NCBI GenBank assembly: GCA_045803545.1 | Contig: JBJMOW010000002.1 | Coordinates: 448,001-512,000 of the forward strand | DNA length: 64,000 nucleotides | DNA from: Gemmatimonadaceae bacterium | Lineage (GTDB): Bacteria > Gemmatimonadota > Gemmatimonadetes > Gemmatimonadales > Gemmatimonadaceae | Reading direction: 5' to 3' | The notes under the pieces: generated by a model | The model's database searches: none | Seen by the model: the letters and a program-made list of their open reading frames with translations, nothing else | Told to the model about the DNA's origin: nothing | Position numbers and translations under genes: made by a program | In this document: in pieces, positions 34,237-63,489 of the stretch | Layout of the letters: each line of letters begins with the position of its first letter | How positions within the stretch are numbered: the stretch's first letter is position 1

Positions 34237-34324
34237 GGACGGGTGGCCGAGTGGTTTAAGGCGCACGCCTGGAAAGTGTGTGTACGTTCATAGCGTACCG
34301 TGGGTTCGAATCCCACCCCGTCCG
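34237..34324 (+). tRNA. tRNA-Ser(GGA); probable prophage integration target
   Basis: Acceptor GGACGGG/CCCGTCC, anticodon arm CACGC-CTGGAAA-GTGTG, long variable arm, GTTCGAATC; integrase ends 86 bp downstream. Confidence 0.95.
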
Positions 34325-34410
34325 TTAACTCGTTGCGACCTAGCAGGTTGCGAAAAGCGCCGTATGCAGCGTCAAGCCAACGGGTTAGAACTGCATACGA
34401 AACGTATACG

Positions 34411-35976
34411 TTAAGCCGCATTTGACCCTCCAGTCTGTGATGGCTTTTTCCCCCCGATCAGGGCCGTAATTGCGCTGTCCGCAGCTGGCGAGCGCTCCTC
34501 GAATACGGGGCTCAGCTCACTCCTGGCGGCCAGATCTTCCGCTATTACCTCATTGGCCCCATCCACCCTTGCGAAGGCTTCCGCCGGCGACTCCGGACCA
34601 GTGTCCACTTCCGGACGTTCGTTCTCGCCGCGCAGCTTGGCCTTGAAGTCGCGCGCTGCACGCCGGCCGATCCGGTTCTCGCGCTCCGCGTATACGCCCT
34701 TCGGAACGGTCGTCGAGCTCCACCCGCCCAACGCCTTCAATCCTTGCTCGCCCAGCTCCTCCTCGAGCGCCAGGTCGACCGGTAACCGGCGGAGACCGTA
34801 CGCGCCCATTCCCTTTACGTAAGCGATGCCTGCCTTCGCGCGGACCGCGTGAAAGGTCTTGATCACCCACTGCCTCGAGACGTGCTCGTCGGGTCGCATC
34901 TTCTTCCCGAGGCGATGATCGACGCCGTGTTTCCGGCCGAAGATCCTGCCCGCCGGGAAAAGCGGATAATCTTTGCCGGCCGTCAGATACTGCTCCTCGA
35001 GCGGGCCCAGGAATCCCGTCAGATACGCATCGACGACGATCCGCATCCCCTTTGTCAGCTCGACGATCTCTCCACTCTTGTGGCCGGCGCCGTGCACGTG
35101 CAGCTCGCCGAACTCGGCCTTGTCCAACTTGAGATCGCTCCGCATCGCGCGCGATGTCTGACCCAGGCGGAGCTCCGCGGTCACGTAGATCAGGATCGCG
35201 ATGCGAGGATCGACGAACGGTGCCGCCTTCACGATCTTCCGCATCTGCTCGAGCGTGAAGCGTGGCTGATACGGCTCCGGATCTCGCTTGGCTCCGGTCA
35301 AGCCGCGACGGAACGCGCGCAGGTCGTCCTTCCATTTGACGGTGCCCGAAGCGGTCCTCTCAGTATCGATCTGCGCCGCGTGCAGCGGAATGAGTTTCTT
35401 CTTTCGCAGCCAGTTGATTGCTGTGATGAGTCTCGACACGGTGGTGTCGGCCGAGCGTGAAGTCTTGTGACCTCGACGCACGAGATCAGACACACGAGCG
35501 CGAATGAGCTTAGTCCACATCGAGTCGTCGATCGAATCGACCGGCGTGTCCGCTCCCCACACACTGACGGCGAAGCGCAGCGATCTCACGAGCTCGTCGC
35601 GGAACGGGAATTTGTTTGGATACTTTCCCGTTTCCTTATCGGTGATCAGCGTCTCGACCTCGCCGATGGTCACGCGCTTCGCCTGCGGTCCGGATACTGG
35701 CAGCGTCCCTGACAGCTGCTGCGACTTCCGCATCGCCTGCTCGACAGCCCACTGCGCGACGTCCGGATTCACGGAGCCGTCCGCATTCCGGAGTGGCTTA
35801 CCGAGCTTGTTGTTCTTCAAGCTCTCGCCGCCCCAATTCTCGACGCCGGTCCGCCACCACCGCAAATAAATTCCTCCTTGCCGGTGGGGATTTTCCTCGA
35901 CGACAACTTTGTTCGGGAACACCCCGACCTCGGCCGACCACTTCTTCGGCGCCGCAGATTTTCTCGCGCGCGTCAT
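34411..35976 (-). CDS. tyrosine recombinase (prophage integrase)
   Basis: Catalytic-like series ELRLGQ, GHKSG, YGLRR, GGW, KGVY; adjacent to tRNA 3' end; ATG 35976 overlaps the upstream stop. Confidence 0.85.
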   Translation of the reverse strand: MTRARKSAAPKKWSAEVGVFPNKVVVEENPHRQGGIYLRWWRTGVENWGGESLKNNKLGKPLRNADGSVNPDVAQWAVEQAMRKSQQLSGTLPVSGPQAKRVTIGEVETLITDKETGKYPNKFPFRDELVRSLRFAVSVWGADTPVDSIDDSMWTKLIRARVSDLVRRGHKTSRSADTTVSRLITAINWLRKKKLIPLHAAQIDTERTASGTVKWKDDLRAFRRGLTGAKRDPEPYQPRFTLEQMRKIVKAAPFVDPRIAILIYVTAELRLGQTSRAMRSDLKLDKAEFGELHVHGAGHKSGEIVELTKGMRIVVDAYLTGFLGPLEEQYLTAGKDYPLFPAGRIFGRKHGVDHRLGKKMRPDEHVSRQWVIKTFHAVRAKAGIAYVKGMGAYGLRRLPVDLALEEELGEQGLKALGGWSSTTVPKGVYAERENRIGRRAARDFKAKLRGENERPEVDTGPESPAEAFARVDGANEVIAEDLAARSELSPVFEERSPAADSAITALIGGKKPSQTGGSNAA

Positions 35977-36446
35977 GCGGATCTCCGCTGGCGATCGCGC
36001 TTGCACGCCAGGCACACACGACTGCGCCGGCCCTTCCGAACGCGGATGCTTGTGTTCGCCGGCGTGTACTCGTGACCGCTCGAGCAACTGGAGCGGCCGC
36101 GCCAGAAGTTGTTGTCGCGCCCTTTGGCGTTGCGATCGCGCATGTTCGCCAGCTGGGTACCGAGGAAGAAATGCTCGGGGTTGAAGCAGGGCGGATTATC
36201 GCAGCTGTGTAAAACGGACTTGCCGTCGGGAATCGGCCCAATGAATTCCTGGTACGCCATTCTGTGCACGGACTGCGTCTTGTTGCCGACGGTGATCTGC
36301 CCGTAGCCGAAGTCGTCGCAGCCGCGCGTCCACTCCCAGCATCCCGATGGTGTGATCCGCCGATGCTTTAGGAGTCTCGCGCGCACCGATGGTGGCGAGC
36401 AGGGAAGGCACCTGCAGCCGGGCTTGTGACCAGGTGGACGCTTCAT
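35973..36446 (-). CDS. HNH homing-type endonuclease
   Basis: CWEW, GYG, HRMAY, LHSCDNPPCFNPEH, C-terminal C..GH...CxxC. Confidence 0.9.
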   Translation of the reverse strand: MKRPPGHKPGCRCLPCSPPSVRARLLKHRRITPSGCWEWTRGCDDFGYGQITVGNKTQSVHRMAYQEFIGPIPDGKSVLHSCDNPPCFNPEHFFLGTQLANMRDRNAKGRDNNFWRGRSSCSSGHEYTPANTSIRVRKGRRSRVCLACKRDRQRRSA

Positions 36447-37377: not shown

Positions 37378-37643
37378 GCTGGATCGTCGTCGACGTGGAG
37401 AGCTGCACGTCCCTTGGCCGTCAGCTCATAGCGTTCCTCGGCCGGCACCAGGGCGCGCTCGCAGGACATCGTCCGATCGCAGTGCGACGGCCAGCCATTG
37501 CGCAAGCAGGAGGCGGCTTGCTGCGCGGTGATGCGTTCCTGGTGTCGGCACACGACGCACTTGAGAATCGCGCCGTGTGGCCAAAGCGTGCTGCCGATCT
37601 CCTCGTGAACCTTGCCCAGCTGCTCGAGCTTCTCGGCATTCAT
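37374..37643 (-). CDS. small zinc-finger phage protein
   Basis: CVVC...GWPSHC; overlaps neighbours. Confidence 0.65.
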   Translation of the reverse strand: MNAEKLEQLGKVHEEIGSTLWPHGAILKCVVCRHQERITAQQAASCLRNGWPSHCDRTMSCERALVPAEERYELTAKGRAALHVDDDPA

Positions 37644-38104
37644 TTCTGAAACCTCCGTTCGAAGAAGCGGCGGTCCTGGTAGCGGCGAATACAGCCGGCA
37701 TTAACACACGTGCGGCATGCACGGCCGTTCGGCCGGTTGATCGTATTCTCGGGCGTGAACTCGTGGCCGCGCTTGCAGTGGGTCTTGAACGCGTTCGGAG
37801 AAACAGCGCGACCCTTCGCCACCATATCGTCCATGTTGTCCTGCAGCGTCCCCAGGAACAGGTGATCGGGATTCACGCAGTCACGCACATCGCAGCGATG
37901 CAGAACGAACAGTCCCGGCGGCACCGGACCGCGCGCGAGCTCCCAGGAGAACCGGTGCGCGAGGACCTTCCGATTGTTGATGCGTATTCGCGCATAGCCG
38001 CCGGAGGGGCGCGTGCGCGCTTTCTGCCGCCAAATCCAGCAGCCGTCTGGTCGACGCAGCACTGCGCGCTCGAAACGGACCTGCGCACTGAGGTTGAGAG
38101 TCAC
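37640..38104 (-). CDS. HNH homing-type endonuclease (second copy)
   Basis: CWIW, GYA, AHRFSW, LHRCDVRDCVNPDHL, HCKRGH...CRTC. Confidence 0.9.
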   Translation of the reverse strand: MTLNLSAQVRFERAVLRRPDGCWIWRQKARTRPSGGYARIRINNRKVLAHRFSWELARGPVPPGLFVLHRCDVRDCVNPDHLFLGTLQDNMDDMVAKGRAVSPNAFKTHCKRGHEFTPENTINRPNGRACRTCVNAGCIRRYQDRRFFERRFQK

Positions 38105-38412: not shown

Positions 38413-38927
38413 GCCGGCGGCACCGGTTTGCCGTTGCCAGGTACGAACACCGTAACGGCGGGCGCTGGCTCCTTATTACTCAGGACGCCGGCGACAGCCC
38501 GAGCGATCTGCTTCTGCAGTGCGGTGTTGAAGTCCTCCTGCGCAATTGACTGCTCGACCGATGCAACAGCCTCCGTAGTGAGCTGCTCATCGCCCTCTCC
38601 GTCACGCCAGCGGCGTTTAATAACTCTCGTGGTCGCGTTGCCATGAAGGTCGCCAGTCAGACTGAGCACGGCGGCCGCGAAACGGATCTCCTCCAACTCG
38701 TGGAGTGCTAGGCGGTCCATGACAACGCCGGCCCGCGAACTAATGTCATCACCTTGAGACTTTAGCTGCGCTACATCGCCGAGCGGCAGCTGCGTGCTCT
38801 CGATTGCGAGCGCGTTCAAATCGCTCCACGCGACTTGCGCGGCCGCGCTCTTGATCCCCAGCTGCGGCGCATGCTCGCTCAGGAATAGTGCGATGTCAGC
38901 TTTGCGCTTAGCGCAGATGTCGCACAT
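38409..38927 (-). CDS. hypothetical phage protein
   Basis: 172 aa ORF coupled to neighbours; N-terminal CDIC. Confidence 0.65.
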   Translation of the reverse strand: MCDICAKRKADIALFLSEHAPQLGIKSAAAQVAWSDLNALAIESTQLPLGDVAQLKSQGDDISSRAGVVMDRLALHELEEIRFAAAVLSLTGDLHGNATTRVIKRRWRDGEGDEQLTTEAVASVEQSIAQEDFNTALQKQIARAVAGVLSNKEPAPAVTVFVPGNGKPVPPA

Positions 38928-39973
38928 CAGCGGGCCCCCGCGCCGGCCAGCGGCAGTTCATCGCCCTCAGCCTCGAGCTTTGTGCGGATCTCGAGCTCCA
39001 ACGCCGCGATCCACTTGTCAGCGAGTCCATACTTGACGCCAACTTTCAGGCGACGCTCAACGCGATCGCGAACGTCCTGCCCGACGTGCTCGTCGGCGAT
39101 CAGCTCGAGCAGCCGTGCGATTTGCGCTTCGGTTGCCGGCGTGTCGTCGGCCGGTCTCGCAGCTGCAGCGGCCGTGACAGGCGCAGGCGCATCGGCAGCT
39201 GCGCGAGCCGTGACGGTCTCCGGCGCCGGTGCAACGATCTCGTACTCGGCCTCGGGAATGTCCTCGGCGTCGAACTGTTGAATGACGCCGGCGAGCTTCC
39301 GATTCTTTGGAAGCGCTTTCGTGATCTGGTGGATGAGGGTCTTGCGCGCGTACCAGCCGGGCATCTCGCCTTGCTTCCACGATTTCGATTTCTCCTGGCG
39401 GATCTTGTCAATTTCCTCGACCGACATCACGACGACCTTCATCGGCTGTCGCTGGCTGATGAGCGCCCAGGCGTAGGCGCCAAGCATCTTGCCGCGCGCG
39501 GCCGGGTCGACGATCGGATGATGCTCGATGAAAGGCGACGTGCCTTGGTGATAGATGAAGTGCTCCTTCTCGTAGAAGCACTGCGCGTCGACGTCGCGCG
39601 CTGCGCCGGAGCCCTTCACCAGCTCGATGTCACCCTTCCAATCGCGAAGTGCCTTGGCGCGCTTCTCCCACCGATCGGGCTCGCCCTTCTTCGATACCTT
39701 CACGTTGAAGGGAACCAGGTGAATCGTCTCGCCGAACTCGAGATCCTGTTTCACACCCTTGCCAACGGCCATGATGATGGACGCCGGCGTGCACTCGAGG
39801 ATCTCCGGATTCTCGGCCACGACCTGGTGGATCGTTGAGACGACCCGCTCGAGCGAGACGCCATGCGGCAACAGCGGGATGATCTGCCGCTTCGCGTCGT
39901 CGCTCAAAAGAATCGATGATAGCTGCTGTCGCGCGAGTGCCATCGAATTAGTTGCCTGTCCTGGTGCGCTCAT
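38927..39973 (-). CDS. recT: RecT-family single-strand annealing protein
   Basis: NPEILECTPASI, HLVPF, WKGDIELV, GAYAWA, MSVEEI..IR, ARKT...KALP; ATG 39973. Confidence 0.85.
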   Translation of the reverse strand: MSAPGQATNSMALARQQLSSILLSDDAKRQIIPLLPHGVSLERVVSTIHQVVAENPEILECTPASIIMAVGKGVKQDLEFGETIHLVPFNVKVSKKGEPDRWEKRAKALRDWKGDIELVKGSGAARDVDAQCFYEKEHFIYHQGTSPFIEHHPIVDPAARGKMLGAYAWALISQRQPMKVVVMSVEEIDKIRQEKSKSWKQGEMPGWYARKTLIHQITKALPKNRKLAGVIQQFDAEDIPEAEYEIVAPAPETVTARAAADAPAPVTAAAAARPADDTPATEAQIARLLELIADEHVGQDVRDRVERRLKVGVKYGLADKWIAALELEIRTKLEAEGDELPLAGAGAR

Positions 39974-40407: not shown

Positions 40408-40921
40408 CTATCCTGCCCTCCGCTCCGCTCCCCGAACAACGGCACCTGTCGTTTTGCGATGGACAGCTCCGTGATGCCGCGTGCAGAGCCATCTCACTTG
40501 CAACGGCTTGCCGTAATCCTCGTGATGCGCGTGCGCCCGCGACGCGCCGCACACTTCCGTCAAAACTGCTCTGCGCAACGGAACTATGCAGAAGCAGCCG
40601 TGCGAGATTACGCGCTCGCAGCTTTTCGGGATCGCGGACGTACTTCGGTGACCGCGCGTAGCGCTCACGCCTGCGCGCGAGCGCTGCCAATGTCGGCGGC
40701 TGATACTGGGAAGGGTGGTGGCCGAGCTCGTGCCAGCATTCGCGGCACATGCTTCGGCGTTTGCCCTTGCCCTTCGACGGAAACTCCGCGAGTGGCAATT
40801 CCCAGTGACACTGGCTACACACCTTCGTCGCCAGGGTAAAGCGGGGCGCGGGAGTCGAACCCGCAGCCTCCAGGTTGGCTACCTGGCGTTCAACCATTTG
40901 AACTTCCCCCGCAGGTTGCAT
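40408..40921 (-). pseudogene. frameshifted zinc-finger/HNH-like phage gene
   Basis: KVCSQC...MCREC...RARNLAR in one frame; EVCGA..HAHHEDYGKPLQVRWLCTRHH in another frame. Confidence 0.6.
40840..40912 (-). tRNA. degenerate tRNA-Gly(GCC)-like element
   Basis: GCGGGGG-AA-GTTC AAATGGTT GAAC-G-CCAGG TAGCCAA CCTGG-AGGCT-GCGGG TTCGACT CCCGC-GCCCCGC-T; A8, A33 and G7:G66 are non-canonical. Confidence 0.65.
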
Positions 40922-41406: not shown

Positions 41407-41658
41407 TCAACGCACCTGCGCCATAACTTCGGCGCCCCAGAAATCCTCGGGGTCCATCTCGACGTAAGCCGCGACGTTGGTCGCCAGCTCCTTGCTGGGG
41501 GTGCGCTTACCCTCGAAGCACTCCCGGAGGTGAGTCCACGAGGAGTCGAGGTCCTCCAGGGCTGCGACGCCACTCGCTTTGTCTCGGAGGGTCGCGGCTT
41601 TGGCGAACTCCGCTTTGCGCTGGAGTGGGGTCATAGATACTTTGGTGGCAGGTCTCAT
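41407..41658 (-). CDS. Cro-like HTH regulator
   Basis: Small XRE-like fold (HLRECFEGKRTPSKELATNVA); divergent from the repressor. Confidence 0.8.
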   Translation of the reverse strand: MRPATKVSMTPLQRKAEFAKAATLRDKASGVAALEDLDSSWTHLRECFEGKRTPSKELATNVAAYVEMDPEDFWGAEVMAQVR

Positions 41659-41721
41659 TTAGCCCGTCTAAAGGGGACGGGCTAATTATTAGCCTCTATT
41701 GGCTAAATGTCAAGCTTAGCC
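41659..41721. promoter_or_regulatory. lysis/lysogeny switch: leftward promoter and operator repeats
   Basis: Minus strand TTGACA (41713-41708), 17 bp, AATAAT (41690-41685); inverted repeats TTAGCCCGTC/GACGGGCTAA and TTAGCC/GGCTAA; extra TTAGCC half-site. Confidence 0.8.
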
Positions 41722-42255
41722 TTAATGCCACCTGAGAAACCAAGGTCCGAGGACTGGGGCGCGATCCTGGAAGCGAGCCTCGGAGAACGACTTAGGCGCG
41801 CCAAACGTGGCGCGAAGAAGAGCAACAAGGAAATCGCGAAGGTCGCCGGCGTTCACCCGGTGACTGTGAGCGAATGGTTCCGAGGCCAGCGACCGCGAGA
41901 CGATACACTCGAGAAGGTCGCCGATTTCCTAGGCGTCGATCGTAACTGGCTAATAAACGGTCAGCGTCCGCCTGAACTCTCCAATGACTTCACGCCGAGC
42001 ACGAATCTGAGAAAGCGCCTGCGCCCGGCGCCGTATGCTCGCGTCTACGAACACATCGAGAAGATGCAGAGGGCGGGCTGCTCGGTCGATCAGATCGAGC
42101 TGGCCGAGCGCACGATGATCGACAGTGCGTTCAATCAGTTAAACAAGCGCGACGTCCGAGATCGGACCGATGAGGATATGATCATGGACATCGACTCCGC
42201 TTGGCAGTGGATCAAGGAAGTGCTCAGCCGATCGGGCGTGAGCGGTCTCGAGTAA
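41707..42255 (+). CDS. CI/ImmR-like XRE repressor without S24 peptidase domain
   Basis: LGERLRRA...EIAKVAGVHPVTVSEWFRG..P...LEKVADFLGV..NWL; helical C-terminus; alternative ATG at 41725. Confidence 0.88.
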   Translation: MSSLALMPPEKPRSEDWGAILEASLGERLRRAKRGAKKSNKEIAKVAGVHPVTVSEWFRGQRPRDDTLEKVADFLGVDRNWLINGQRPPELSNDFTPSTNLRKRLRPAPYARVYEHIEKMQRAGCSVDQIELAERTMIDSAFNQLNKRDVRDRTDEDMIMDIDSAWQWIKEVLSRSGVSGLE

Positions 42256-43014
42256 ATGAAGCCACTGTCAGTCGTCGCCTTCGCGCGGTCTCTCTACGCG
42301 ACTCACCCCGAGCTGATGGGCCCGGTTCGGTGGCAGGGCTTCCTTCGCATGGCGGAACGGTCCGGCATCGCAGTACGCGTCGTGCCGCTGTCGCGGCCAG
42401 CGCGATTAATCCGCTACGGTCAAGCACTTTGCATCCAGATCCAGCGCGAGCTCAATCACCATCTGCGGACGTTGTATGGCATGCATGAACTCTGTCACGC
42501 CTGGCGCGACGAGCTCGGCATGGAATGCATTTACGCGGATGAGGAAACGGTAATGACAGATCCGAAGGAAGATTTTGCGGACCTGTTCGCCTGGTATGTC
42601 ACGTCGGAAGCGCGGATCTTCCACGAGCCACTTGAAGCGCAGCTCAAGTCGGACTTATCGCCCGTTCGCGTCGATGGCGATGGCAGATTTGCCATGCCAG
42701 TTGTAGGCGAATCGTTCTGCGAAGGGGCGTTCCTTGAGATCTGTGGACCCCGTCGACCAGAAGGCTATGACGTTGTAGTCGCCGCGGCTCTGGTCCCAGA
42801 GAATGACAATCGTGCAGATCCAAAGGCCGTCCGCGTCGAAGTCAGCGGGAAAAAAGTAGGCTACCTCTCGCGCTCAATGGCCAGGCGTTACCGAATGCGA
42901 TTTGCGCGCCGAACTGTGTACTGCAAGGCACGCATCACTGGCGGCTGGAATCGCGGAGGAACTGACACTGGAAACTTTGGTGTGAGACTCGATCTCACAG
43001 GAGGGGCAGGATGA
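42256..43014 (+). CDS. ImmA/IrrE-type metallopeptidase fused to a HIRAN-like domain
   Basis: HELCH (HExxH) plus EDFADLFA; C-terminal VVGESF...LVPENDNRADPKAVRV..GKKVGYLSR. Confidence 0.8.
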   Translation: MKPLSVVAFARSLYATHPELMGPVRWQGFLRMAERSGIAVRVVPLSRPARLIRYGQALCIQIQRELNHHLRTLYGMHELCHAWRDELGMECIYADEETVMTDPKEDFADLFAWYVTSEARIFHEPLEAQLKSDLSPVRVDGDGRFAMPVVGESFCEGAFLEICGPRRPEGYDVVVAAALVPENDNRADPKAVRVEVSGKKVGYLSRSMARRYRMRFARRTVYCKARITGGWNRGGTDTGNFGVRLDLTGGAG

Positions 43015-45965: not shown

Positions 45966-46892
45966 TCATGCGGCGAGCGCCTCGCTAATTCCCTGCATCG
46001 TGTCGTCGTTGTAGTCCTCAGCTCCCGGGATCTCGGCGTTCCAGACCGCGCCACAGATGCCCGCTTCTGCCTGGAGACGGAACGATCTCTCCATCCACTC
46101 GCTCCGGAGTGACGGATCCGGAGGAACCAGCGCGAACTCGGTGTTCCAGATCGGCTTGTCGACCCCGTGCATCAGCATGACAGATCGGAGCGTCGCGATC
46201 TCGAGCGGCAATTCGTCCGGCGTCTGCGGGTAGCTGTGAAAGGCGATCACATCGCAGGAGTTGCCGCCGCCGGCGGACAGATAGCGATCGGCGAACTGGA
46301 CCCCGCGACTCAACCCCAGCTCCGTCATCGAGGGAGAGAGGACGATCGCGCCCGGCTCGATCTCTTTGATGATCTGGTACGCGACAGCGGACTGCGCTGC
46401 GAGCTGCTCGACTGTGCCGCTCCAGTAGCCGGCGACACCGGGCTCGTTCCACAGCTCCCAGTATTTGATGCGGCCGGCCGACTGGGTGACGACGTCCCGC
46501 ACGAACTGAGTCCACGCCGCGGCAAGAGGGACTTTCGAATTCGGATAGCACGCAGTAGATGGCGGCTCCCCGAACGTGAACATCACCTGCGCGCCGACTC
46601 GCTCCGCATATCTGAGATTCGCCTCGAGCGCGGCCGCGTCGGCGACCATCTTCCACCACACCGCACGACTATCCCACAGACGCAGTAGTCCGAAGTAGCA
46701 GGTGACCGGGCAGCACAGCGAGCCATCGTCGAGTACCCAATCGCCTTGGACCATGTGACCGAAGAACGTCGGCCCGATCGACTTCGACCGGAGCTCGCGT
46801 GGCCAATCCAGCTTCTCCGCCTTACAAGCCATTAGGATGAACGCAGCTGCAGCGCGGCCGCACTCGAGGAGAAACTTCCGCCGCTCACTCAT
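45966..46892 (-). CDS. clan GH-A glycoside hydrolase (GH39/GH5-like), putative Tat lipoprotein
   Basis: WELWNEP, AFHSY, IWNTEF; N-terminus SERRKFL...LMAC; ATG 46892. Confidence 0.78.
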   Translation of the reverse strand: MSERRKFLLECGRAAAAFILMACKAEKLDWPRELRSKSIGPTFFGHMVQGDWVLDDGSLCCPVTCYFGLLRLWDSRAVWWKMVADAAALEANLRYAERVGAQVMFTFGEPPSTACYPNSKVPLAAAWTQFVRDVVTQSAGRIKYWELWNEPGVAGYWSGTVEQLAAQSAVAYQIIKEIEPGAIVLSPSMTELGLSRGVQFADRYLSAGGGNSCDVIAFHSYPQTPDELPLEIATLRSVMLMHGVDKPIWNTEFALVPPDPSLRSEWMERSFRLQAEAGICGAVWNAEIPGAEDYNDDTMQGISEALAA

Positions 46893-47434
46893 GCGTCTGC
46901 CCGGATGTCGAGGAGATACTCGATCCTCGCCATGCCGTAGAAAGCCATCTCCGCTTTCCACAGATTCTTGAATTCTTCGTACTGATCCGGCCAAACTGTC
47001 TGGCAACCGAGACTCCCAGTCGACGTATAGCCGCCCTGGTGGATCTCGATGTCGAACATCCCAGTCTCGCGGATTCCGTTGTCACGCAGTACGGTCACCG
47101 GCTCGGCTTGGATCAGGCATGGATACTCGTGCGGCGTGCCGGCGTGATGCGTCCACGGCTTCATTGTCCAGACGCCAGGCTCGAGGACCGCCAGGCGGTC
47201 GCCTTGCTTCGACGGATCGGTGTTCGCGTTAAAAGTCTTGAACACTCGAGGGGAGAGAACGATGATCGCGTCATCGTATTGGCCGCGATCGTTCTTGCCG
47301 GCGAGGCCCATCGAGTCGCGGAAGTAGCCGCGCTGCCCAATGATGATGGTTTGATCGGTGACGCCGTATGCAGCGAGGATCTTCCGCGCGTCAACGATCG
47401 AGAGCTGCGGCCGCGCAGGCGGGATCATGCTCAC
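46889..47434 (-). CDS. putative endolysin (Cys/His peptidase, YkuD-like motif)
   Basis: YDDA, NTDPS, IHQGG...SLGCQT; follows the holin. Confidence 0.65.
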   Translation of the reverse strand: MSMIPPARPQLSIVDARKILAAYGVTDQTIIIGQRGYFRDSMGLAGKNDRGQYDDAIIVLSPRVFKTFNANTDPSKQGDRLAVLEPGVWTMKPWTHHAGTPHEYPCLIQAEPVTVLRDNGIRETGMFDIEIHQGGYTSTGSLGCQTVWPDQYEEFKNLWKAEMAFYGMARIEYLLDIRADA

Positions 47435-48660: not shown

Positions 48661-51600
48661 TTAGACTGGTTTGATGTTGTGATTCAGAATGCCGGCCGCA
48701 ATGAACGTCTGCGCTTTCTCGACGGTCAGCTTGACGACCGGTCCTAAGTCCCACGACCTGATGACGTGCTCCACACGCGCGCGCGGGCTGCCCATCAGCA
48801 CCTGTCCGGGGAAAAGCGTTTGCGCCTGACGCCAGGCATCAGCCCCTGCGAGTTTTAAGCGATGCTTGGCCGAGCATACGATGTGACGGCCGTCTTCGAA
48901 CCAGATTTTCGTTCGCGCTTCCATGAGGTAGGCGGATGCCGCCTTGACTCTGAAAGCCCCGAAATGGTCCTGCCGGAATTCCGGAATGGTCCAGACGTAG
49001 TCGCCGACCTCGATCTGGTCGGCGCGCTTCTCGTGGAGATGCTTCCCGTGCCGGTCGCAGACAAGAATCAGCGTCTCCGGCGCGACGCACGTGGGACCGC
49101 CAGTGCCCGAGCCTGTTCCACTTCCTCCGGACGTTACGATTTGCCCGACGTAAAGGTGAGCCTGTTGGTTAGGTAAGTAATTGGGCTCGATCAGCGCGAA
49201 GTAGGTCGGCGATCCACCCCCGGCGATAGTTATATCATCTGTGTAGATGTAATTCTTGCCGGTAGCGTTTTGCGTACATGTCCCCGACCCATAGTCGACG
49301 ACCTTTTCGTTGTTCCCCGTGTCCCCGACTACGAGGCTCCAAGCGCCGATGCTGATTGTCGTGCCGCTTGAACTGACCGGAGTGGGCGAGCCGCGGTTCG
49401 CATTACTTATGACCTGCGCCGACCACGCGCCCGCTATTGCGGACGGGGCGTGCCGGAATGCACCGTCGAGGTAGCCGCTACTATGGAGCTGCGTGAAGCC
49501 ACGACTGCCGCCCGTTTTTTCGTTGGCTGTTGTGCGTTTGTACGTCGAGCCCTCGGGCACATCGTCAAAGATGTGGTGGCTAGTATTGAAGTGCGTGTTT
49601 AGAGCGTAGCCGCGCGAATCGACGTGCGACGAGTGTGATGTCAGTCCATCGTTTGTGGTGGATCTGCCGCCGTAATCGCCGTCGTCGAAAGGTCGCCCGC
49701 GTTTCACATGACCGGTGGTATCGATTTCCTGCCTCTGCGACGGAACGCTCGTGTGTATTTCGCTGAAGAGACCGGTGATCGTATCGGTGACGCGAAAGCG
49801 AATGAGCTTTGTACTTCTCAAATCCCGATTAACGACCTGGGCATAAGCGAAGGACGTCCCATCGCCGCTGTTGAGGAGCGTCTCTGCGGAGTTACTGATC
49901 TTGACGTAGATGGCCCATGTCAGGTTCGTTCCACCTCCGCCGGATCCTGCCACCGCGTTGAGCGTCAACGTTCGAGTTGTATCATCGGCTTCGGTGGCGC
50001 TCGGTGTGATGGTCGGAACCGGCGGTTTGAACACCACAGGCATTCCCGTCGTTGATACGGCTCCGCTCTGACCGACCCCAGAGATCGCGTCGAGGCCGCG
50101 AATCGCGACGATGAAATCCGTGCCCCAAAGATTCTTGCCCACTATGACGCCGACGGCCGAGACCCTGCCGGAGATCGGCATTCCGTTGTCGGTTAAGCCG
50201 TCGGCCGAGAATGAGAGGCGACGATCGGTGTACTGGTCGGTTAGGATCGTGACTGCGTCGCCCATTTTGAGCCACGGCCACATCAGGACGGTCTTCACCT
50301 TCCAGAGTCGGACTCCGGATTTCCATGCGCGCTGAAACTTGTCGGCCGAATAATTCGCCTCAGCCAGATCGTTCCACCTGCAGAAGTTGTCCGGGAACTC
50401 GAATACGTCGAACAGATTCGGCCGACCCCAGCCAGTGAGCTCGTCGAACGCCTCGTAGGTCGCTTGGTTCGTGAACTTTTGGGTGTCCGCCTGGTAGCCA
50501 TACTTCACGCGAACCGAAGGCATTCTCCGATCGGCGCCGATCGGAGTCTCGAGCGAAACGATATGGCGATCGTCCCATGTGGCGACGGAGACCTTATTCG
50601 GTGAGTAGATGTCGGCAAAATCGATTCGCCCTCTCTCCCACGTGATTATTCCGTCGGCGTGCAGGGCAACGTCCTGGATTATGTCGAGCGCTTTGACGCC
50701 GTCCGACGGCAGCGTGAAGGTGCCCGTGCGTCCCGTCGTCGGCGGCAGAATCCCGCGATACCGTGCTGGAACCGCCGACTGAACCCCGAGCAAATCGCTA
50801 TAGATCGCTGCGTAGTCCTGCCCCACATAAGCGGCACCCGTTCGCGTCGTTACGTCGGAGTGGATCTCGAAGGTGTCGCCGTTGACTGGCACCGTCTGGA
50901 GATTCGGATCCGCGTTGATGTCGAAGTGATCGTTGTTATTCGCAACGATGACGTAATCGATTCCGGCGGCGTTCCCAGTGACGCCGTGTGCACGGAAGCC
51001 GACCAGGCTCTGCCCGGTGAAAGGGTGTGATCCGCTCGTCGACGGAGTGACGCGATAGGTCGTGCCTGAGACTAGAGCGACGGTTGTCGCGGCCACTGTA
51101 CCCGACAGCGGATAGCGATACGTCTCGACAGCGGAGGGAATCTTTACACTCAGGCGATCGAAGCCCGAGACGAAGGTCATCTCCTCGGTGCCGTCCTGCG
51201 GATCCCGGTTCTCGAGTCGATAGCTATTCAAGAAAAGCCGCGTTCCGTCGCGTGTGTTGCGTGCGTAGACGTGCGCCTCGAGCGAGGAGGGCGCGTATGA
51301 CGATCCCAGGAGGGAAGCGAGATCTCGATAGTCTTTCCGGCCGGCCTTCAGGATCGGCAGCTTGAGCTCGCCGATCGAAGACTGTCCGGTCACGGGATCT
51401 GCGGTGACGGTCGAATCGAAATCCTTGAGATAGCGATACGTGTTGAGTGTCACGCGTTCGACCATCATCCACGCCTGAAGACTCGGCGTCGCGAACCGCG
51501 TGCCCGACGCCGGACCCGCAGTGAAGCTCGCGGTCAGGCGATACCAGATGAAATAGTTGCCGTTGACGAGGATAGTCCCGTCCTTTACTGCGCCGATGCT

Positions 51601-52776
51601 GGTCCACGGCCCGGCCGCAGAGACGTTAGAACCCTCGAGGGAGTAGGTGATCGACGTCCCGATCGGCTGCCAGTCGTCGAGGCGCACTTCGAGATCGTGC
51701 GTCGGCACTCCGCCCATGCTGAGAACGCCGACCCAGGAGCCGCTTGCCGCAAAGGTCTTCGCCTTCAGGTTGTGATAAGGCTGCTCCCACGTGCCGCCGG
51801 AATCCTGCGCGCGCTGTTTCGTCGTTGGCCGTCTGGCGATTCCCCACGAGCCGTTTGTAACCGCCTTCGCTCCATAGCCTGGCACGGCGCCCGCGATCAG
51901 GCGATCGTCGGGATTGTGGGTGAGATCGTTCGCGGCGAATGGCTGGAGCGTCGGGTTGTACGGGCCGCAGTTACGATTGGTGGCCCGACGATAGAACGCG
52001 GTCGTGTCGAACTGCGCGGCCGTAGCGTTGGCGACGCATCCGATCCACGCGCCCTGAAATCCGCGCCCCACAGGCTCGACCGAGATCGAGAGACCGCGAG
52101 GCATGTTGATGATGTGGCAAACACCCTTGCTGTCGATGTTGGGGTTTCTGAGCGCGGAGCCATCGTAACCCAAGCCGGTGTTCGTGTTCTGGAAGCCCGG
52201 GTGGATAATGAACCGTCGCTGTGTCTGCGAGGTGAAATCGATCGTGTATACGCCGCCGCCTGGCGTGATGCCGGCAGCGTTGGCTTTTACGTCGAACGGA
52301 TCCCCGATCGGAACGAGGTTCCAGTCGACGTCGTAGTAGCCGAGGCGCACTCGAAAGATTCCGTTCTTGTCGAACGTGAACGAGCTGCCGGTCGCTCCGA
52401 AAGTGGCGAGGTAGAGATCGATCGACGCGAGCTCGATCGCGACGCCCTGCGCGATATTGGGATTGAAGAAGAAATCGAGCGCGTATTCCTCGGATCCATC
52501 AACCGCATCGTGGAACGCGTGGCGGACCGTCGCCGTATTGGTCTGCGAGAAAATGGAGCTCGTCCCCGTCTGGGTTAAGGACAGCGCTCCGGAGTTTGCG
52601 TCCGCGGTGACATTCGTCTTGGTGCCCGCGTCCCAATCCGCTTTCGTCGACGCCTGTGCCGCTCGCGCCACGGCGAGGATGTCGACGTCGAGCTCCATGC
52701 ACGGGTTGAGGCGTTGGCATGCTCTAATGATCGAAGCGACTGAGCCCGCCGCCGGTATTCCTGGTAGAGTGGGCAT
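48661..52776 (-). CDS. large tail-tip / host-specificity protein with C-terminal Hint domain
   Basis: 1371 aa, beta-rich, two genes after the tape measure; ends GGPT-CVAPET...SAKH...TFIAAGILNHN-IKPV. Confidence 0.8.
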   Translation of the reverse strand: MPTLPGIPAAGSVASIIRACQRLNPCMELDVDILAVARAAQASTKADWDAGTKTNVTADANSGALSLTQTGTSSIFSQTNTATVRHAFHDAVDGSEEYALDFFFNPNIAQGVAIELASIDLYLATFGATGSSFTFDKNGIFRVRLGYYDVDWNLVPIGDPFDVKANAAGITPGGGVYTIDFTSQTQRRFIIHPGFQNTNTGLGYDGSALRNPNIDSKGVCHIINMPRGLSISVEPVGRGFQGAWIGCVANATAAQFDTTAFYRRATNRNCGPYNPTLQPFAANDLTHNPDDRLIAGAVPGYGAKAVTNGSWGIARRPTTKQRAQDSGGTWEQPYHNLKAKTFAASGSWVGVLSMGGVPTHDLEVRLDDWQPIGTSITYSLEGSNVSAAGPWTSIGAVKDGTILVNGNYFIWYRLTASFTAGPASGTRFATPSLQAWMMVERVTLNTYRYLKDFDSTVTADPVTGQSSIGELKLPILKAGRKDYRDLASLLGSSYAPSSLEAHVYARNTRDGTRLFLNSYRLENRDPQDGTEEMTFVSGFDRLSVKIPSAVETYRYPLSGTVAATTVALVSGTTYRVTPSTSGSHPFTGQSLVGFRAHGVTGNAAGIDYVIVANNNDHFDINADPNLQTVPVNGDTFEIHSDVTTRTGAAYVGQDYAAIYSDLLGVQSAVPARYRGILPPTTGRTGTFTLPSDGVKALDIIQDVALHADGIITWERGRIDFADIYSPNKVSVATWDDRHIVSLETPIGADRRMPSVRVKYGYQADTQKFTNQATYEAFDELTGWGRPNLFDVFEFPDNFCRWNDLAEANYSADKFQRAWKSGVRLWKVKTVLMWPWLKMGDAVTILTDQYTDRRLSFSADGLTDNGMPISGRVSAVGVIVGKNLWGTDFIVAIRGLDAISGVGQSGAVSTTGMPVVFKPPVPTITPSATEADDTTRTLTLNAVAGSGGGGTNLTWAIYVKISNSAETLLNSGDGTSFAYAQVVNRDLRSTKLIRFRVTDTITGLFSEIHTSVPSQRQEIDTTGHVKRGRPFDDGDYGGRSTTNDGLTSHSSHVDSRGYALNTHFNTSHHIFDDVPEGSTYKRTTANEKTGGSRGFTQLHSSGYLDGAFRHAPSAIAGAWSAQVISNANRGSPTPVSSSGTTISIGAWSLVVGDTGNNEKVVDYGSGTCTQNATGKNYIYTDDITIAGGGSPTYFALIEPNYLPNQQAHLYVGQIVTSGGSGTGSGTGGPTCVAPETLILVCDRHGKHLHEKRADQIEVGDYVWTIPEFRQDHFGAFRVKAASAYLMEARTKIWFEDGRHIVCSAKHRLKLAGADAWRQAQTLFPGQVLMGSPRARVEHVIRSWDLGPVVKLTVEKAQTFIAAGILNHNIKPV

Positions 52777-60179: not shown

Positions 60180-61265
60180 TTACGCCAGCGCGTCTTTGGA
60201 AATGGCGAAGGCCTGCGGGTGTCTCACAGCGACGTCGATCAGTTGATACGACGTGAATTCGATCATGCCCTGCTTCTTCAACCGGAACGGATCCGCGACG
60301 ATCTCGAACGCGCCCCAGAAGCCGATGATCACTTCCGACATCGCGCCGAAGATGATCGGGTGGCAGACGGCGCCCGAGGTGCCCTTGACGAGATTCTTCG
60401 GGAGTTGGTTCGAAACGAGGACCGGGTAGTCGTTGATCGACTGATCTCCGTCGAGGATGAACCAGCCAGAGGTCGTCTGGCGATCGGTGATGCGCCAGCG
60501 GTCGCGAATCTCCGGGGTCGTGACGTAAGCCATCGTGTCTAGGTCGACGTCACCGTCAGCGACAGCGACGGTCTTCTCGAACGACGTCGTCTGGGGCCAC
60601 GTCGCGATCTGCCCGTTCGTGCCGAGCGCGATCGGGTTCGTGTTGGCCTGATTGAGGAGCCCGGTCGGCTGACCCGAAGCGCCTGATCCGTTCAAGGCCG
60701 CGAGATCGATCGTTGATGCGTGGACGCGAACGAGATCATTTCTCACGAGCTCGTCGACGGACGTTGAGACTTGCGACTGAGCGAGCAGCTGACGGGAGAA
60801 CGAGGTCGTCCCGATTAACTCCTTTGGCGCCATCGCCACCGAGTTGAGCAAGAGATTCGTGTCGCTGACGTCGGCGCCCGGGTTCTGCGTGCTCCAGGAA
60901 GCGGTAGCGACGCCGTTCCCTCGCGGGATCGCGAGATCTCCGGTCAGGCCTTCGAGGACCGTAGCGCCCGCGCGAATCACGATCGCGCGCTTTCTCAGCG
61001 CGTCGATGAACGTCCTCGCCTGCGTGAACTTGAGCTCCTGACCTTTCGTCGACGTCGCCGTGTCCAGCCCTGCGCGCATCGACATCGAGTAAGGAACGAG
61101 GAGCCCGCCGTGCTGGGGAGTGCGAGTTTTGGCGAGCTCGTCGGACACCTCGAACGCGAGCCCTGACTTCGCCCGCTTCCGCTCCGGATCATCTGCGAGC
61201 TGAGCGAGCGCGTCACCTAGACGGTATTCGCGCTCTTCTCTCGCGTTCAGTGTGGTGTCCGACAT
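60180..61265 (-). CDS. second HK97-fold major capsid protein
   Basis: SRQLLAQ, DLAALNGSG...PTGLLN, DPF, DVAVRHPQAF. Confidence 0.88.
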   Translation of the reverse strand: MSDTTLNAREEREYRLGDALAQLADDPERKRAKSGLAFEVSDELAKTRTPQHGGLLVPYSMSMRAGLDTATSTKGQELKFTQARTFIDALRKRAIVIRAGATVLEGLTGDLAIPRGNGVATASWSTQNPGADVSDTNLLLNSVAMAPKELIGTTSFSRQLLAQSQVSTSVDELVRNDLVRVHASTIDLAALNGSGASGQPTGLLNQANTNPIALGTNGQIATWPQTTSFEKTVAVADGDVDLDTMAYVTTPEIRDRWRITDRQTTSGWFILDGDQSINDYPVLVSNQLPKNLVKGTSGAVCHPIIFGAMSEVIIGFWGAFEIVADPFRLKKQGMIEFTSYQLIDVAVRHPQAFAISKDALA

Positions 61266-61362
61266 GAAATCGTTGAGTGAGTAGTGAGGTGAAACGGCGT
61301 GGAACGGAGTGGGGATGCGGCGCGCCTCTTACCTCACGCCGCACCACTCACTCAGTTGGCGA

Positions 61363-63489
61363 CTAGGCCAGCGCGTCCTTCATCGCCGAGAACGCGGCGG
61401 CGTACTTGACGGCGATTCCGTACATGGCGAAGGAGGTCACTTCGATCATGCCCTGTTTCTTCAGGCGATACGGATCGACGATGAGCTCCATCATTCCCCA
61501 GTCACCGACGACGGCCTGACTCCAGGCGCCGAAGATGATCGCCAAGCAGATACCGCTCGACGAACCCTTGGTGAGGTTGTTGGGGACCTGGGCGGACACC
61601 CAGCCCGGGTAACCATTGATCTCGCCTGGAACGCGTGCGCCGAGACCCTGAACCGCTCCGGTTCCGAGAACGTTGGCGTCCGACTTCTGCCACACCGGAA
61701 TGCCAACGGTGTTGGAGAGCACCTGCGCTTTCTTGAACGTGCCGCGCGTGGTCGGGTGCACCATGTACGCGCACGGCCACTGATCAGCGTTCGCAGCTGC
61801 GACCTGAGTTTCCAGATCGACGAGGTGCGTGTACGCCGGCGTCAGGCCGTTCGTGCCGCCGGCGACGGAACCGATACCTGACGTATTCAGGATTCCGGTC
61901 GGCTGGTTCGACGCGCCGGAGCCGTTGATGACGGCGAGATCGAGCGCGATCGCGTTGACGCGCGCCAGATCGTTACGCACAATCGAATCGACGTCGACCA
62001 CCGCCTGCGCGAGCAGCTGCCTCGAGTAGGAGGTCGAAGCCTGGATCGACTTCGGGTTGAGCGCGATCTGAGTCAGCGTCAGGTTGGAATCCGCGACGTC
62101 AGATCCGGGGTTTTCAGCGACCCACGTTGCGGTTGCGGCACCGTTCTGGGCCGGGAAGGCAACCGGACCCTGGAGACCCGCCATCAGGGTGACGCCGGCG
62201 TCGAACGCTGCCATCTTGTTGCGCAGCAGCTCGAGGAAATCACCGGGCACCGTGAACTTGAGCTCGAGACCCTTGGTGGAAGTCGCCGAGTCCAATCCAG
62301 CGCGTTGCTCCATCGGCCAACCGTTCTGGCGAGCCATGATCTCCCGCGCTCTCGCTTCCGAGGTGAAGGTCGGAACGAGGATTCCGCCATTCCGCTTGAT
62401 TCCCTGTGGGACTTTCTTCTCCAGGTCCTGGGCGATCTCGCGCTCGAATGACGCATCGACTTTCTTGCCCATCACGTCTTCGGCGTGCGCGAGAATCGCC
62501 CGCTGGAAGGAGTATTGCTTCCGCTCCTTGTCGGTGAGCTCGACAGCCGGCTTCCCTGTCGGTGCGCTGGCATCGCCGCGCTCCTGGAGCTCGCCCAGGA
62601 TCGAAGCGGCCGCGGAGTCGAGCGTGCGTCCCTCTTCGATCCACGTCGCCACTTTCTCGGCGGGGATCTTGTGCTTGGTGGCGAGTGAGCGGATTTCGTT
62701 CACTCGCTTGCGCTCGGCTTTGACGGCCTCGTCGCGATCCGCGACGGTGATCGCGGAGGGTTTGGATTCGGCCCCGTTATTCTCGGTAGCCGCGTTTGCT
62801 CCTGACATCGGATTGCTCCTGGCGGTGGCCTTCGGGGCCGTGATTGTGAGGTGAGGGAAGTGCTTGCGGAGCGCGGCGATCGCTGTCTCCGTGTCTTCGG
62901 GCGGCGCGTCCCCCGCGCTCCTGCCCACGCCCACCGTGACATCGGCGGGAACTGCAACGCTCGAGGCTTCCATTGGGAGCCAGCGAGTGACGCGAACTTC
63001 GGGAACCTTGTTCTCGCCTTCGACTTCGCGCGTTTCCGTCTCGAGGCAGCGGTAGCCGACCGAGATCCGCTTTCGGATCCCGTCGAGCATATCGCGCCGG
63101 AGATCCTGCGCGGTCGTTCGTTGGCTATAGCGCACCATGCCGCGCATCACGCCGTCTTTGTCGACCGAGATGTCTTCGACGATTCCTTCCTGCTGTCTCG
63201 TGTCGTGGCCATCGAGGAAAGCCATTCCGTCCCTCGCATAGGAGAGATCGACGGCCTCCTTCGTGTGCACGAGCACTTCGTCGTAGAACTCGCCGTCCCA
63301 CCAGCTGTAGCGCCGGACCGGCGTCTCGCTCGAGATCGCGATCGGGACTCGCTCGTCGACGGTGCCGTCAGCCGCGCGAGTCGCAGCGACCTGGGCGAGC
63401 TTCTCCCGATCGACGACGAAAAGCATGTCGCGGTAGAAGACCTCGGCCTTTCTTTTCTCTTCGGATTTCTGTTCGGACTTTGAAGCCAT
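61363..63489 (-). CDS. prohead protease - scaffold - major capsid fusion
   Basis: Protease motifs AISSETPV, FLDGHD, ISVGY, EASSVAVPAD; coiled linker; HK97-type capsid domain. Confidence 0.92.
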   Translation of the reverse strand: MASKSEQKSEEKRKAEVFYRDMLFVVDREKLAQVAATRAADGTVDERVPIAISSETPVRRYSWWDGEFYDEVLVHTKEAVDLSYARDGMAFLDGHDTRQQEGIVEDISVDKDGVMRGMVRYSQRTTAQDLRRDMLDGIRKRISVGYRCLETETREVEGENKVPEVRVTRWLPMEASSVAVPADVTVGVGRSAGDAPPEDTETAIAALRKHFPHLTITAPKATARSNPMSGANAATENNGAESKPSAITVADRDEAVKAERKRVNEIRSLATKHKIPAEKVATWIEEGRTLDSAAASILGELQERGDASAPTGKPAVELTDKERKQYSFQRAILAHAEDVMGKKVDASFEREIAQDLEKKVPQGIKRNGGILVPTFTSEARAREIMARQNGWPMEQRAGLDSATSTKGLELKFTVPGDFLELLRNKMAAFDAGVTLMAGLQGPVAFPAQNGAATATWVAENPGSDVADSNLTLTQIALNPKSIQASTSYSRQLLAQAVVDVDSIVRNDLARVNAIALDLAVINGSGASNQPTGILNTSGIGSVAGGTNGLTPAYTHLVDLETQVAAANADQWPCAYMVHPTTRGTFKKAQVLSNTVGIPVWQKSDANVLGTGAVQGLGARVPGEINGYPGWVSAQVPNNLTKGSSSGICLAIIFGAWSQAVVGDWGMMELIVDPYRLKKQGMIEVTSFAMYGIAVKYAAAFSAMKDALA

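Follow-up and report, generated by a model that had tools for sequence, protein, structure and literature searches.

A zinc peptidase joined to a HIRAN domain in the immunity module of a Gemmatimonadaceae prophage: a candidate sensor of DNA 3′ ends

What switches on a prophage protease of the ImmA type when the repressor beside it lacks an autopeptidase domain? The window analysed here, a stretch of 64,000 nucleotides from a Gemmatimonadaceae bacterium (GCA_045803545.1, contig JBJMOW010000002.1, positions 448,001 to 512,000), raises this question by encoding a predicted zinc peptidase with a C-terminal HIRAN domain directly after an XRE repressor. The original prediction was that this protein detects free 3′ DNA ends and cleaves the repressor, and that it thereby induces the prophage independently of RecA.

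The prophage, its switch region and the repressor

The features of the element in the window are as follows.
34266..34326, + strand: attachment core of 61 bp in tRNA-Ser(gga), left end of the prophage
34411..35973, - strand: probable integrase, adjoining attL
38927..39970, - strand: RecT-like annealing protein of the early operon (profile match)
41407..41658, - strand: putative Cro-like gene, first of the leftward early operon (named from its position)
41659..41721, no strand: switch region with five TTAGCC/GGCTAA half-sites
41689-41706, no strand: palindrome TTAGCC-N6-GGCTAA
41713-41685, - strand: leftward promoter TTGACA-17-AATAAT (11/12 match; 0.8 sites expected in shuffles)
41725..42255, + strand: XRE repressor with an HTH and a three-helix C-terminal domain, without S24, in the frame 41707..42255 (Pfam HTH_3)
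42145..42168, + strand: predicted cleavage region of the repressor, loop KRDVRDRT, residues 141-148 (model and analogy to DdrO and ImmR)
42256..43014, + strand: fusion of an M78-like zinc peptidase and a HIRAN domain, 252 aa
43011..43916, + strand: three short accessory frames after the fusion, overlapping it through ATGA at 43011
60180..63489, - strand: major head and head-protease genes (PHROG)

The prophage setting proposed for the module was borne out by a 41.5-kb element with the tRNA-Ser core, a RecT gene, HNH genes and major head genes; it is bounded by the 61-bp core and extends past the window. The integrase candidate gave no Pfam or PHROG match, loose threshold included, and was 37% identical to the corresponding gene of a second prophage (genome G511); this frame (34411-35973) would represent a divergent recombinase family. 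Contig C6 ends in an attP-type junction made up of a phage end, the core and an integrase end, and contig C3 ends in an attR junction. Two bases distinguish the two copies of the core (window 34266-34489; ends of C6 and C3). These junctions suggest excised or tandem prophage copies in the sampled population, a misjoin at the core being an alternative. Three HNH-type frames are present in the early region (35973-36425, 37640-38104 and 40408-40668) and might supply DNA ends when the lytic genes are on. The early operon also contains a tRNA-Gly(gcc) gene (40840-40912, - strand). Two further frames were recognised by eye and gave no PHROG match: a glycoside-hydrolase-like frame beside the lysis genes (45966-47006, - strand) and a 1371-aa tail-like protein with an intein-like end segment (48661-52776, - strand).

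The palindrome occurs once in the genome and sits between the -35 and -10 boxes of the leftward promoter. The layout between the Cro-like gene and the repressor is that of a standard lysis-lysogeny switch. The Cro-like label is given by position because the product had no significant family match; a related repressor is flanked by a small divergent gene with 39% identity to this product. The accessory frames apparently encode lipoproteins or membrane proteins and probably share an operon with the fusion; two of them were scanned against Pfam and PHROG and gave no significant match.

Both open frames of the module (41707..43014) were found as originally described, and the second occupies 42256..43014 with a TAA-ATG junction that leaves no gap. 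The repressor start was amended: it is probably 41725, giving 176 aa, since the database call and the closest relative begin with MPPEKP and the -35 box of the divergent promoter shares bases with the ATG at 41707. Pfam HTH_3 matched the repressor (E 3e-12), and the HTH of its model resembled P22 c2 (Z 11.9) and ImmR (Z 11.4). The proposed lack of an S24 autopeptidase was corroborated, as no S24 match was obtained and the modelled C-terminal domain is all helix with three long helices; the genome has three S24/S26 matches, none of them within the prophage. In this respect the repressor differs from lambda cI and LexA, which carry the S24 autopeptidase. In DdrO and ImmR, cleavage falls in the loop joining the last two helices (accessible text of PMC6868357). 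By analogy, a cut in the window repressor, if any, is predicted to fall within residues 141-148. This candidate loop connects the final pair of long helices in the model, and its D143 and R147 are invariant in the alignment.

The peptidase half, its loop cysteine and the HIRAN half

Within the fusion, the following features were located.
42256..42630, + strand: peptidase domain, residues 1-125 (fold match Z 10.0 to PprI 8sln, 9.0 to CapP 7t5t)
42484-42498 and 42568-42570, + strand: zinc site H77-E78-H81 and third ligand E105 (motif HExxH...E)
42526..42546, + strand: C91 and the acidic loop CIYADEE, a predicted CapP-type cysteine switch (from conservation; a low-confidence loop in the model)
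42655..43011, + strand: HIRAN domain (Pfam PF08797, residues 178-226, 27.9 bits against a cut-off of 24.7)
42814-42816, + strand: A187, replacing the Tyr93-type aromatic (alignment)

The assignment as a protease joined to a HIRAN domain was upheld, since both halves gave fold matches and the HIRAN half also scored above the Pfam cut-off. The HELCH motif corresponds to residues 77-81, and EDFADLFA, whose E105 begins at 42568, was likewise confirmed; the VVGESF motif begins at ~42700. The AlphaFold model of the fusion had a pLDDT of 85 and a pTM of 0.49, with a linker below pLDDT 50 and no confident packing between the two halves. Peptidase, linker and HIRAN cover the 252 aa entirely, and the peptidase-HTH-GAF layout of CapP is absent. 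Residues 1-125 aligned with PprI over 101 residues (rmsd 3.4) and with CapP over 110 residues (rmsd 3.5). Two M. tuberculosis regulator entries also matched this half (Z 11.2 and 7.8), and the next-best different zinc peptidase reached only Z 4.6. The C-terminus does model as a HIRAN domain: residues 133-252 matched the bacterial HIRAN 3k2y (Z 8.0, rmsd 3.1, 97 aligned) and HLTF (Z 6.6, rmsd 3.2, 91 aligned), and this half had a TM of 0.84 to an Atlas HIRAN cluster. Foldseek put the same entries (PprI, CapP and HIRAN domains) on top for the fusion model.

Profile searches recovered one of the two expected domains. HIRAN was found, whereas the window protein gave no match to Peptidase_M78 (PF06114) at E≤1; that profile matched 18 of 35 aligned relatives at E≤0.01, and its cut-off was passed by two HTH-tailed relatives. 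H77, E78, H81 and E105 were nevertheless invariant in all 71 peptidases aligned. The fusion had no real match in a single-sequence search of the PDB, no match in NCBIfam, and only weak PHROG matches of its HIRAN part to families of unknown function. PADLOC gave no match for the fusion or for the two downstream frames scanned.

An assembly artefact or a chance fusion was ruled out, because the fusion exists in 38 clusters and public contigs span its junction. The spanning contigs come from two public runs and have 0 differing letters; both runs belong to one study, and the source sample may be among them.

In the window protein, C91 is followed by D95-E96-E97 and then by E105. It is known that CapP is kept inactive by a cysteine that completes the zinc coordination until ssDNA shifts the loop, its switch residues being C114, D117/D118 and E128 (PMC13228613); this cysteine is present in one third of CapPs (accessible part of bioRxiv 2022.04.27.489752). 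C91 stands 14 residues before the Glu ligand, the same spacing as in E. coli CapP. For the clade-B profile, the best PDB match was CapP (E 0.006), whose cysteine sits in the same loop but three columns off. The fusion has no clear counterpart of the ssDNA-binding arginine of CapP. The loop cysteine was found in 58 of 58 tailed proteins (38/38 HIRAN fusions and 20/20 HTH-tailed forms) and in 9 of 19 tail-less forms (7/13 proteins and 2/6 loci). One clade-A subclade has Phe in its place and four clade-B loci have Val, which amounts to about two independent losses. That the cysteine tracks with the C-terminal domain is therefore suggestive and not statistical. The acidic loop residues are missing in 13 of the 38 fusions.

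HLTF offers the reference for the HIRAN pocket, in which N91, H110 and K113 also have roles. The window protein keeps F154, N185, D188, Y203 and R206. Across the 38 fusions, D188, R206 and an aromatic at 154 are present in all, and N185 and Y203 in 37 each. D188 aligns with D94 of HLTF, the 3′-OH-binding Asp; F154 was set against Y72 of HLTF by motif and not by the printed alignment, because the profile alignments shift there. In the HIRAN subfamily of the fusion, an insertion follows the VGESF motif. The 3′-OH is bound in HLTF by D94, and the two terminal bases are pinched by Y72 and Y93, both of which are needed for this (accessible text of PMC5773155). Position 187 is aromatic in 36 of the 38 fusions, the window protein being one of the two exceptions. 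Ala at this position is unique to it among the fusions, was found in eight of 183 HIRAN-only proteins, and was also read in a public contig. Because of A187, the window copy may be a weaker sensor than the rest of its family.

We found no paper on an M78-HIRAN fusion, though subscription papers or supplements could list the architecture. Among the matches listed, the sole relevant paper with both terms describes separate genes, and the accessible portions of PMC11706625, PMC5512222 and PMC6222260 do not mention the fusion. The literature, as far as its text was accessible, likewise yielded no binding experiment on a bacterial HIRAN. The protein is thus a real and conserved domain combination on the known ImmA/IrrE/CapP chassis, and apparently an undescribed one.

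Relatives, exchanged tails and paired repressors

A total of 269 proteins were retrieved: 38 with both domains, 24 with the peptidase and another tail, 13 with the peptidase alone, 183 with HIRAN only, and 11 repressors. Four of the 24 (two frameshift-like, one chimeric and one truncated) were left out of later counts. The peptidase-HIRAN fusion is a small family of 38 clusters, and the close relatives of the module come from Gemmatimonadetes or Gemmatimonadaceae. The other tail weakly resembles an XRE-type HTH (E 0.049 to MBF1, 0.058 to HTH_3). These HTH-tailed proteins (P0029-P0047, P0055, P0063, P0070 and P0149) form a sister family with the same peptidase, in which the loop cysteine is always present.

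Searches elsewhere returned few fusions. Among 50,697 GenBank phage records and 72,556 PLSDB plasmids there was one match each, HIRAN-only in both cases; in BFVD and the Atlas, every match covered a single domain. Metagenome scans and first viral scans, made with HIRAN-dominated patterns, found no fusion; viral contigs scanned with clade-A peptidase patterns and with a DNA pattern gave nothing. No peptidase form of 350-2000 aa turned up in a search of that length range, a weak line of evidence; the range of 220-350 aa lay outside it. Four samples of 401 genomes contained one further fusion.

The two halves of the window protein appear to have different histories. The peptidase half falls beside two HTH-tailed forms (98/83), with which it shares 83-85% identity. 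The HIRAN half falls beside the HIRANs of 11 proteins (SH-aLRT 97, quick tree) and shares 71-78% identity with them, whereas the peptidases of those proteins are only 28-33% identical to that of the window. Third-position GC also differs between the HIRAN half (63/119) and the peptidase half (90/125; p 0.002). Judged from sequence comparison, the window copy is a recombinant of a peptidase lineage and a HIRAN lineage. In the wider family, the peptidase tree requires the fusion label to change at least four times. In a HIRAN tree that sampled 25 random domains of the 178 free ones, 34 fused domains stand apart (SH-aLRT 98) and four nest among free ones; on these trees the fusion arose at least twice, and it moves between peptidase clades. 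Five HIRAN-only proteins are truncated fusions; beyond these, the retrieved free domains reach no more than 54% identity to the window HIRAN. The same HIRAN subfamily also occurs joined to primase-type domains (PF01807, PF09250; P0100-P0102, P0110, P0113 and P0116). Many HIRAN proteins have apparent transmembrane segments (e.g. P0151, P0155, P0187, P0192 and P0134), and some have two or three HIRAN repeats (P0132, P0134 and P0136).

Ten relatives share the C-terminal domain of the repressor at 60-86% identity, with an HTH of 19-45% identity in eight of the ten. For eight of the ten, the longest contig is equally long for the repressor relative and a peptidase relative, which points indirectly to adjacency of the two genes; the partners would be seven HTH-tailed peptidases and one HIRAN fusion. 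An XRE-type gene lies directly before the peptidase at six further loci, as found by profile (L077, L112) or by inspection (L113, L121, L122, L123). The same arrangement is broken in L114, and L078 keeps only a remnant. L112 is a second prophage, in which a HIRAN fusion with a decayed HIRAN motif directly follows the XRE gene; with the window copy, it makes up the two fusions for which the genomic surroundings are known. One repressor, whose two domains are 91% and 86% identical to those of the window repressor, appears to pair with an HTH-tailed peptidase, so the HIRAN domain seems optional for the module.

Free HIRAN genes were found directly after a repressor-type HTH gene at five of 11 viral loci (L002, L003, L005, L008 and L009) and at none of 35 assessable metagenome loci (of 53). 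None of these five viral loci matched the peptidase profile, and one of the repressors is, by inspection, S24-type at its C-terminus.

A homologue of the switch, a chromosomal pair with the same repressor C-terminal domain and a small divergent gene that shares 39% identity with the Cro-like gene, was present in 12 genomes (L097-L108), including 7/7 and 4/4 genomes of two genera. In three of three fetched cases it lies just after a typA/bipA-like gene (L115-L117; genomes G114, G277 and G370), with no peptidase within 1.5 kb. This pair may be a domesticated phage switch.

How the protease might be switched on

The analogy with ImmA, IrrE and CapP, originally drawn from the motif, holds in the HExxH...E signature, the PprI/CapP fold and the adjoining XRE repressor without S24. 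CapP-CapH of CBASS is a close case: it has an HExxH...E peptidase beside an XRE repressor and a cysteine with an acidic loop before the third ligand, and it was the best PADLOC match for a clade-B fusion as well as the best PDB profile match and a fold match at Z 9.0. However, CapP has its own HTH and GAF domains, depends on the GAF domain for its response to ssDNA and takes ssDNA along a groove, whereas the fusion has one HIRAN with a predicted end-binding pocket; its cysteine occupies another column of the same loop; and it controls an immune operon, whereas the fusion sits among the switch, early and late genes of a prophage. The fusion would work like CapP in outline, yet is not a CapP. 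IrrE/PprI-DdrO of Deinococcus shares the fold (Z 10.0), an SOS-independent, ssDNA-stimulated logic to which the fusion may be likened, and, as a likeness of layout only, a repressor with an XRE HTH and a three-helix C-terminal domain; IrrE differs in having no cysteine switch, in using a GAF domain and in controlling a chromosomal repair regulon. The HIRAN domain fills the slot that GAF holds in IrrE. According to the accessible text of PMC12828697 and PMC10904395, ssDNA stimulates IrrE through the required GAF domain, while ImmA, which has no such domain, is not stimulated.

In ImmA-ImmR (ICEBs1, phi105), pneumococcal ImmAR and Rir-Crh, an adjoining repressor-peptidase pair likewise forms the induction switch of a mobile element. 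ImmA has a single domain without ssDNA stimulation, and the tail-less relatives found here are its direct equivalents; Rir differs in that cleavage has not been seen despite its HExxH motif (accessible text of PMC6868357). Some pneumococcal ImmAR prophages induce without RecA, and pneumococcal ThaL is a membrane HIRAN protein in a C1-type lysogeny module (both from accessible sections of PMC12637031). HipL/HipN and ThaL are bacterial HIRANs of the same fold; by analogy, the partner in the fusion would be a peptidase of the repressor-cleaving type. For the HipL kinase-HIRAN fusion, switching-on by phage DNA ends has been proposed as a hypothesis only (PMC8262856). The HLTF HIRAN shares the fold and most pocket residues and differs from this copy, which has Ala at the Tyr93 site.

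In the proposed mechanism, the HIRAN pocket would capture free 3′ DNA ends, and this binding would free the predicted cysteine lock (C91) from the zinc. The released protease would cut the adjacent repressor, and loss of the repressor would free the lytic promoter and induce the prophage. The parts of this chain differ in likelihood. The peptidase very probably cleaves the repressor, with the loop before the last helix as the probable site, and it is likely that the HIRAN domain of the family binds DNA ends. That end binding is coupled to activity through C91 is somewhat favoured. For the trigger as a whole, in which DNA 3′ ends unlock the protease and the protease cuts the repressor, the balance is even. 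The sensor idea is partly supported by the conservation of the HIRAN pocket across the family and by the CapP-like cysteine that tracks the C-terminal domain, as far as alignments can tell. It is weakened by three observations: the HIRAN domain is optional, this copy lacks the Tyr93-equivalent aromatic, and free HIRANs follow phage repressors without a protease.

A bolder account, which we rate as less likely than not, is that temperate phages of this soil phylum use a plug-in switch, a cysteine-locked repressor protease with exchangeable DNA-reading tails, whose HIRAN form would fire on 3′ ends without RecA; the triggers might be breaks, collapsed forks, or restriction-cut or incoming phage DNA. 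Somewhat unlikely, in our judgement, is an ImmA-type antirepressor that answers to a host signal (a RecA filament, zinc or redox state, or stabilisation) and uses HIRAN as a tether or for local concentration. ImmA responds through RecA or RapI in the portions of the literature accessible. The host encodes recA and two lexA genes, HIRAN and HTH tails interchange on 83-87% identical peptidases as a generic DNA tether would allow, and the model has no fixed interdomain packing. However, the cysteine is lost in tail-less forms, which would use the same signal. A candidate LexA box, TTCG-N6-GTTCG, was found upstream of lexA, recA and a third, uvrA-like gene that we take to be uvrA (C4:165393, 356497, 693356). 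Inspection of its 51 sites genome-wide placed none upstream of the immunity module, the sole prophage site being far from the switch; the second lexA (C6) is preceded by a different motif, GTAC-N6-GTAC. The HIRAN domain might instead be cargo of the lysogeny region, serving end guarding or a superinfection block and fused by adjacency without coupling, which we consider improbable. The five of 11 viral loci with free HIRAN genes after repressor genes, ThaL in its lysogeny module, the apparent membrane anchors of many free relatives and the different third-position GC of the HIRAN half would fit such cargo. Nevertheless, 34 of 38 fused HIRANs are separate from the 25 free ones sampled, all retrieved free HIRANs are at most 54% identical to the window HIRAN, and the HIRAN lineage moves between peptidases only ~30% alike yet stays fused.

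Two further readings concern the active site and the pocket of this copy. A Rir-like protein would break repressor dimers by binding, without cleavage, with C91 either sensing redox state or permanently bound as the fourth zinc ligand; the HExxH motif of Rir without observed cleavage and the invariance of C91 in all tailed forms are compatible with this. All 71 peptidases keep the catalytic glutamate, however, and ten tail-less relatives have lost the cysteine, which is therefore not structurally required, so that we hold such a protein to be quite improbable. It is more improbable still, and scarcely credible, that the family senses DNA ends while the window copy, as a recent recombinant with a sensor attenuated or dead through A187, acts like a tail-less ImmA. 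A187 is unique among the 38 fusions and matched by a public contig, and the motif has decayed in another fusion (L112). On the other hand, the remaining pocket residues are intact, Ala occurs in eight of 183 HIRAN-only proteins, and the attP-type junction suggests that the prophage still excises.

The finding bears on how ImmA-type prophage proteases are switched on. One protease exists in three natural versions, with a HIRAN tail, with an HTH tail and without a tail, and the first two have a near-identical substrate; the roles of the sensor domain and of the cysteine lock are therefore directly testable. If the trigger by DNA 3′ ends proves true, it would be the first function shown for a bacterial HIRAN, the presumed ancestor of the fork-reversal module of HLTF/Rad5, and would provide a compact DNA-break-gated protease. 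It would also constitute a new induction signal, in which a prophage reads DNA ends rather than RecA filaments.
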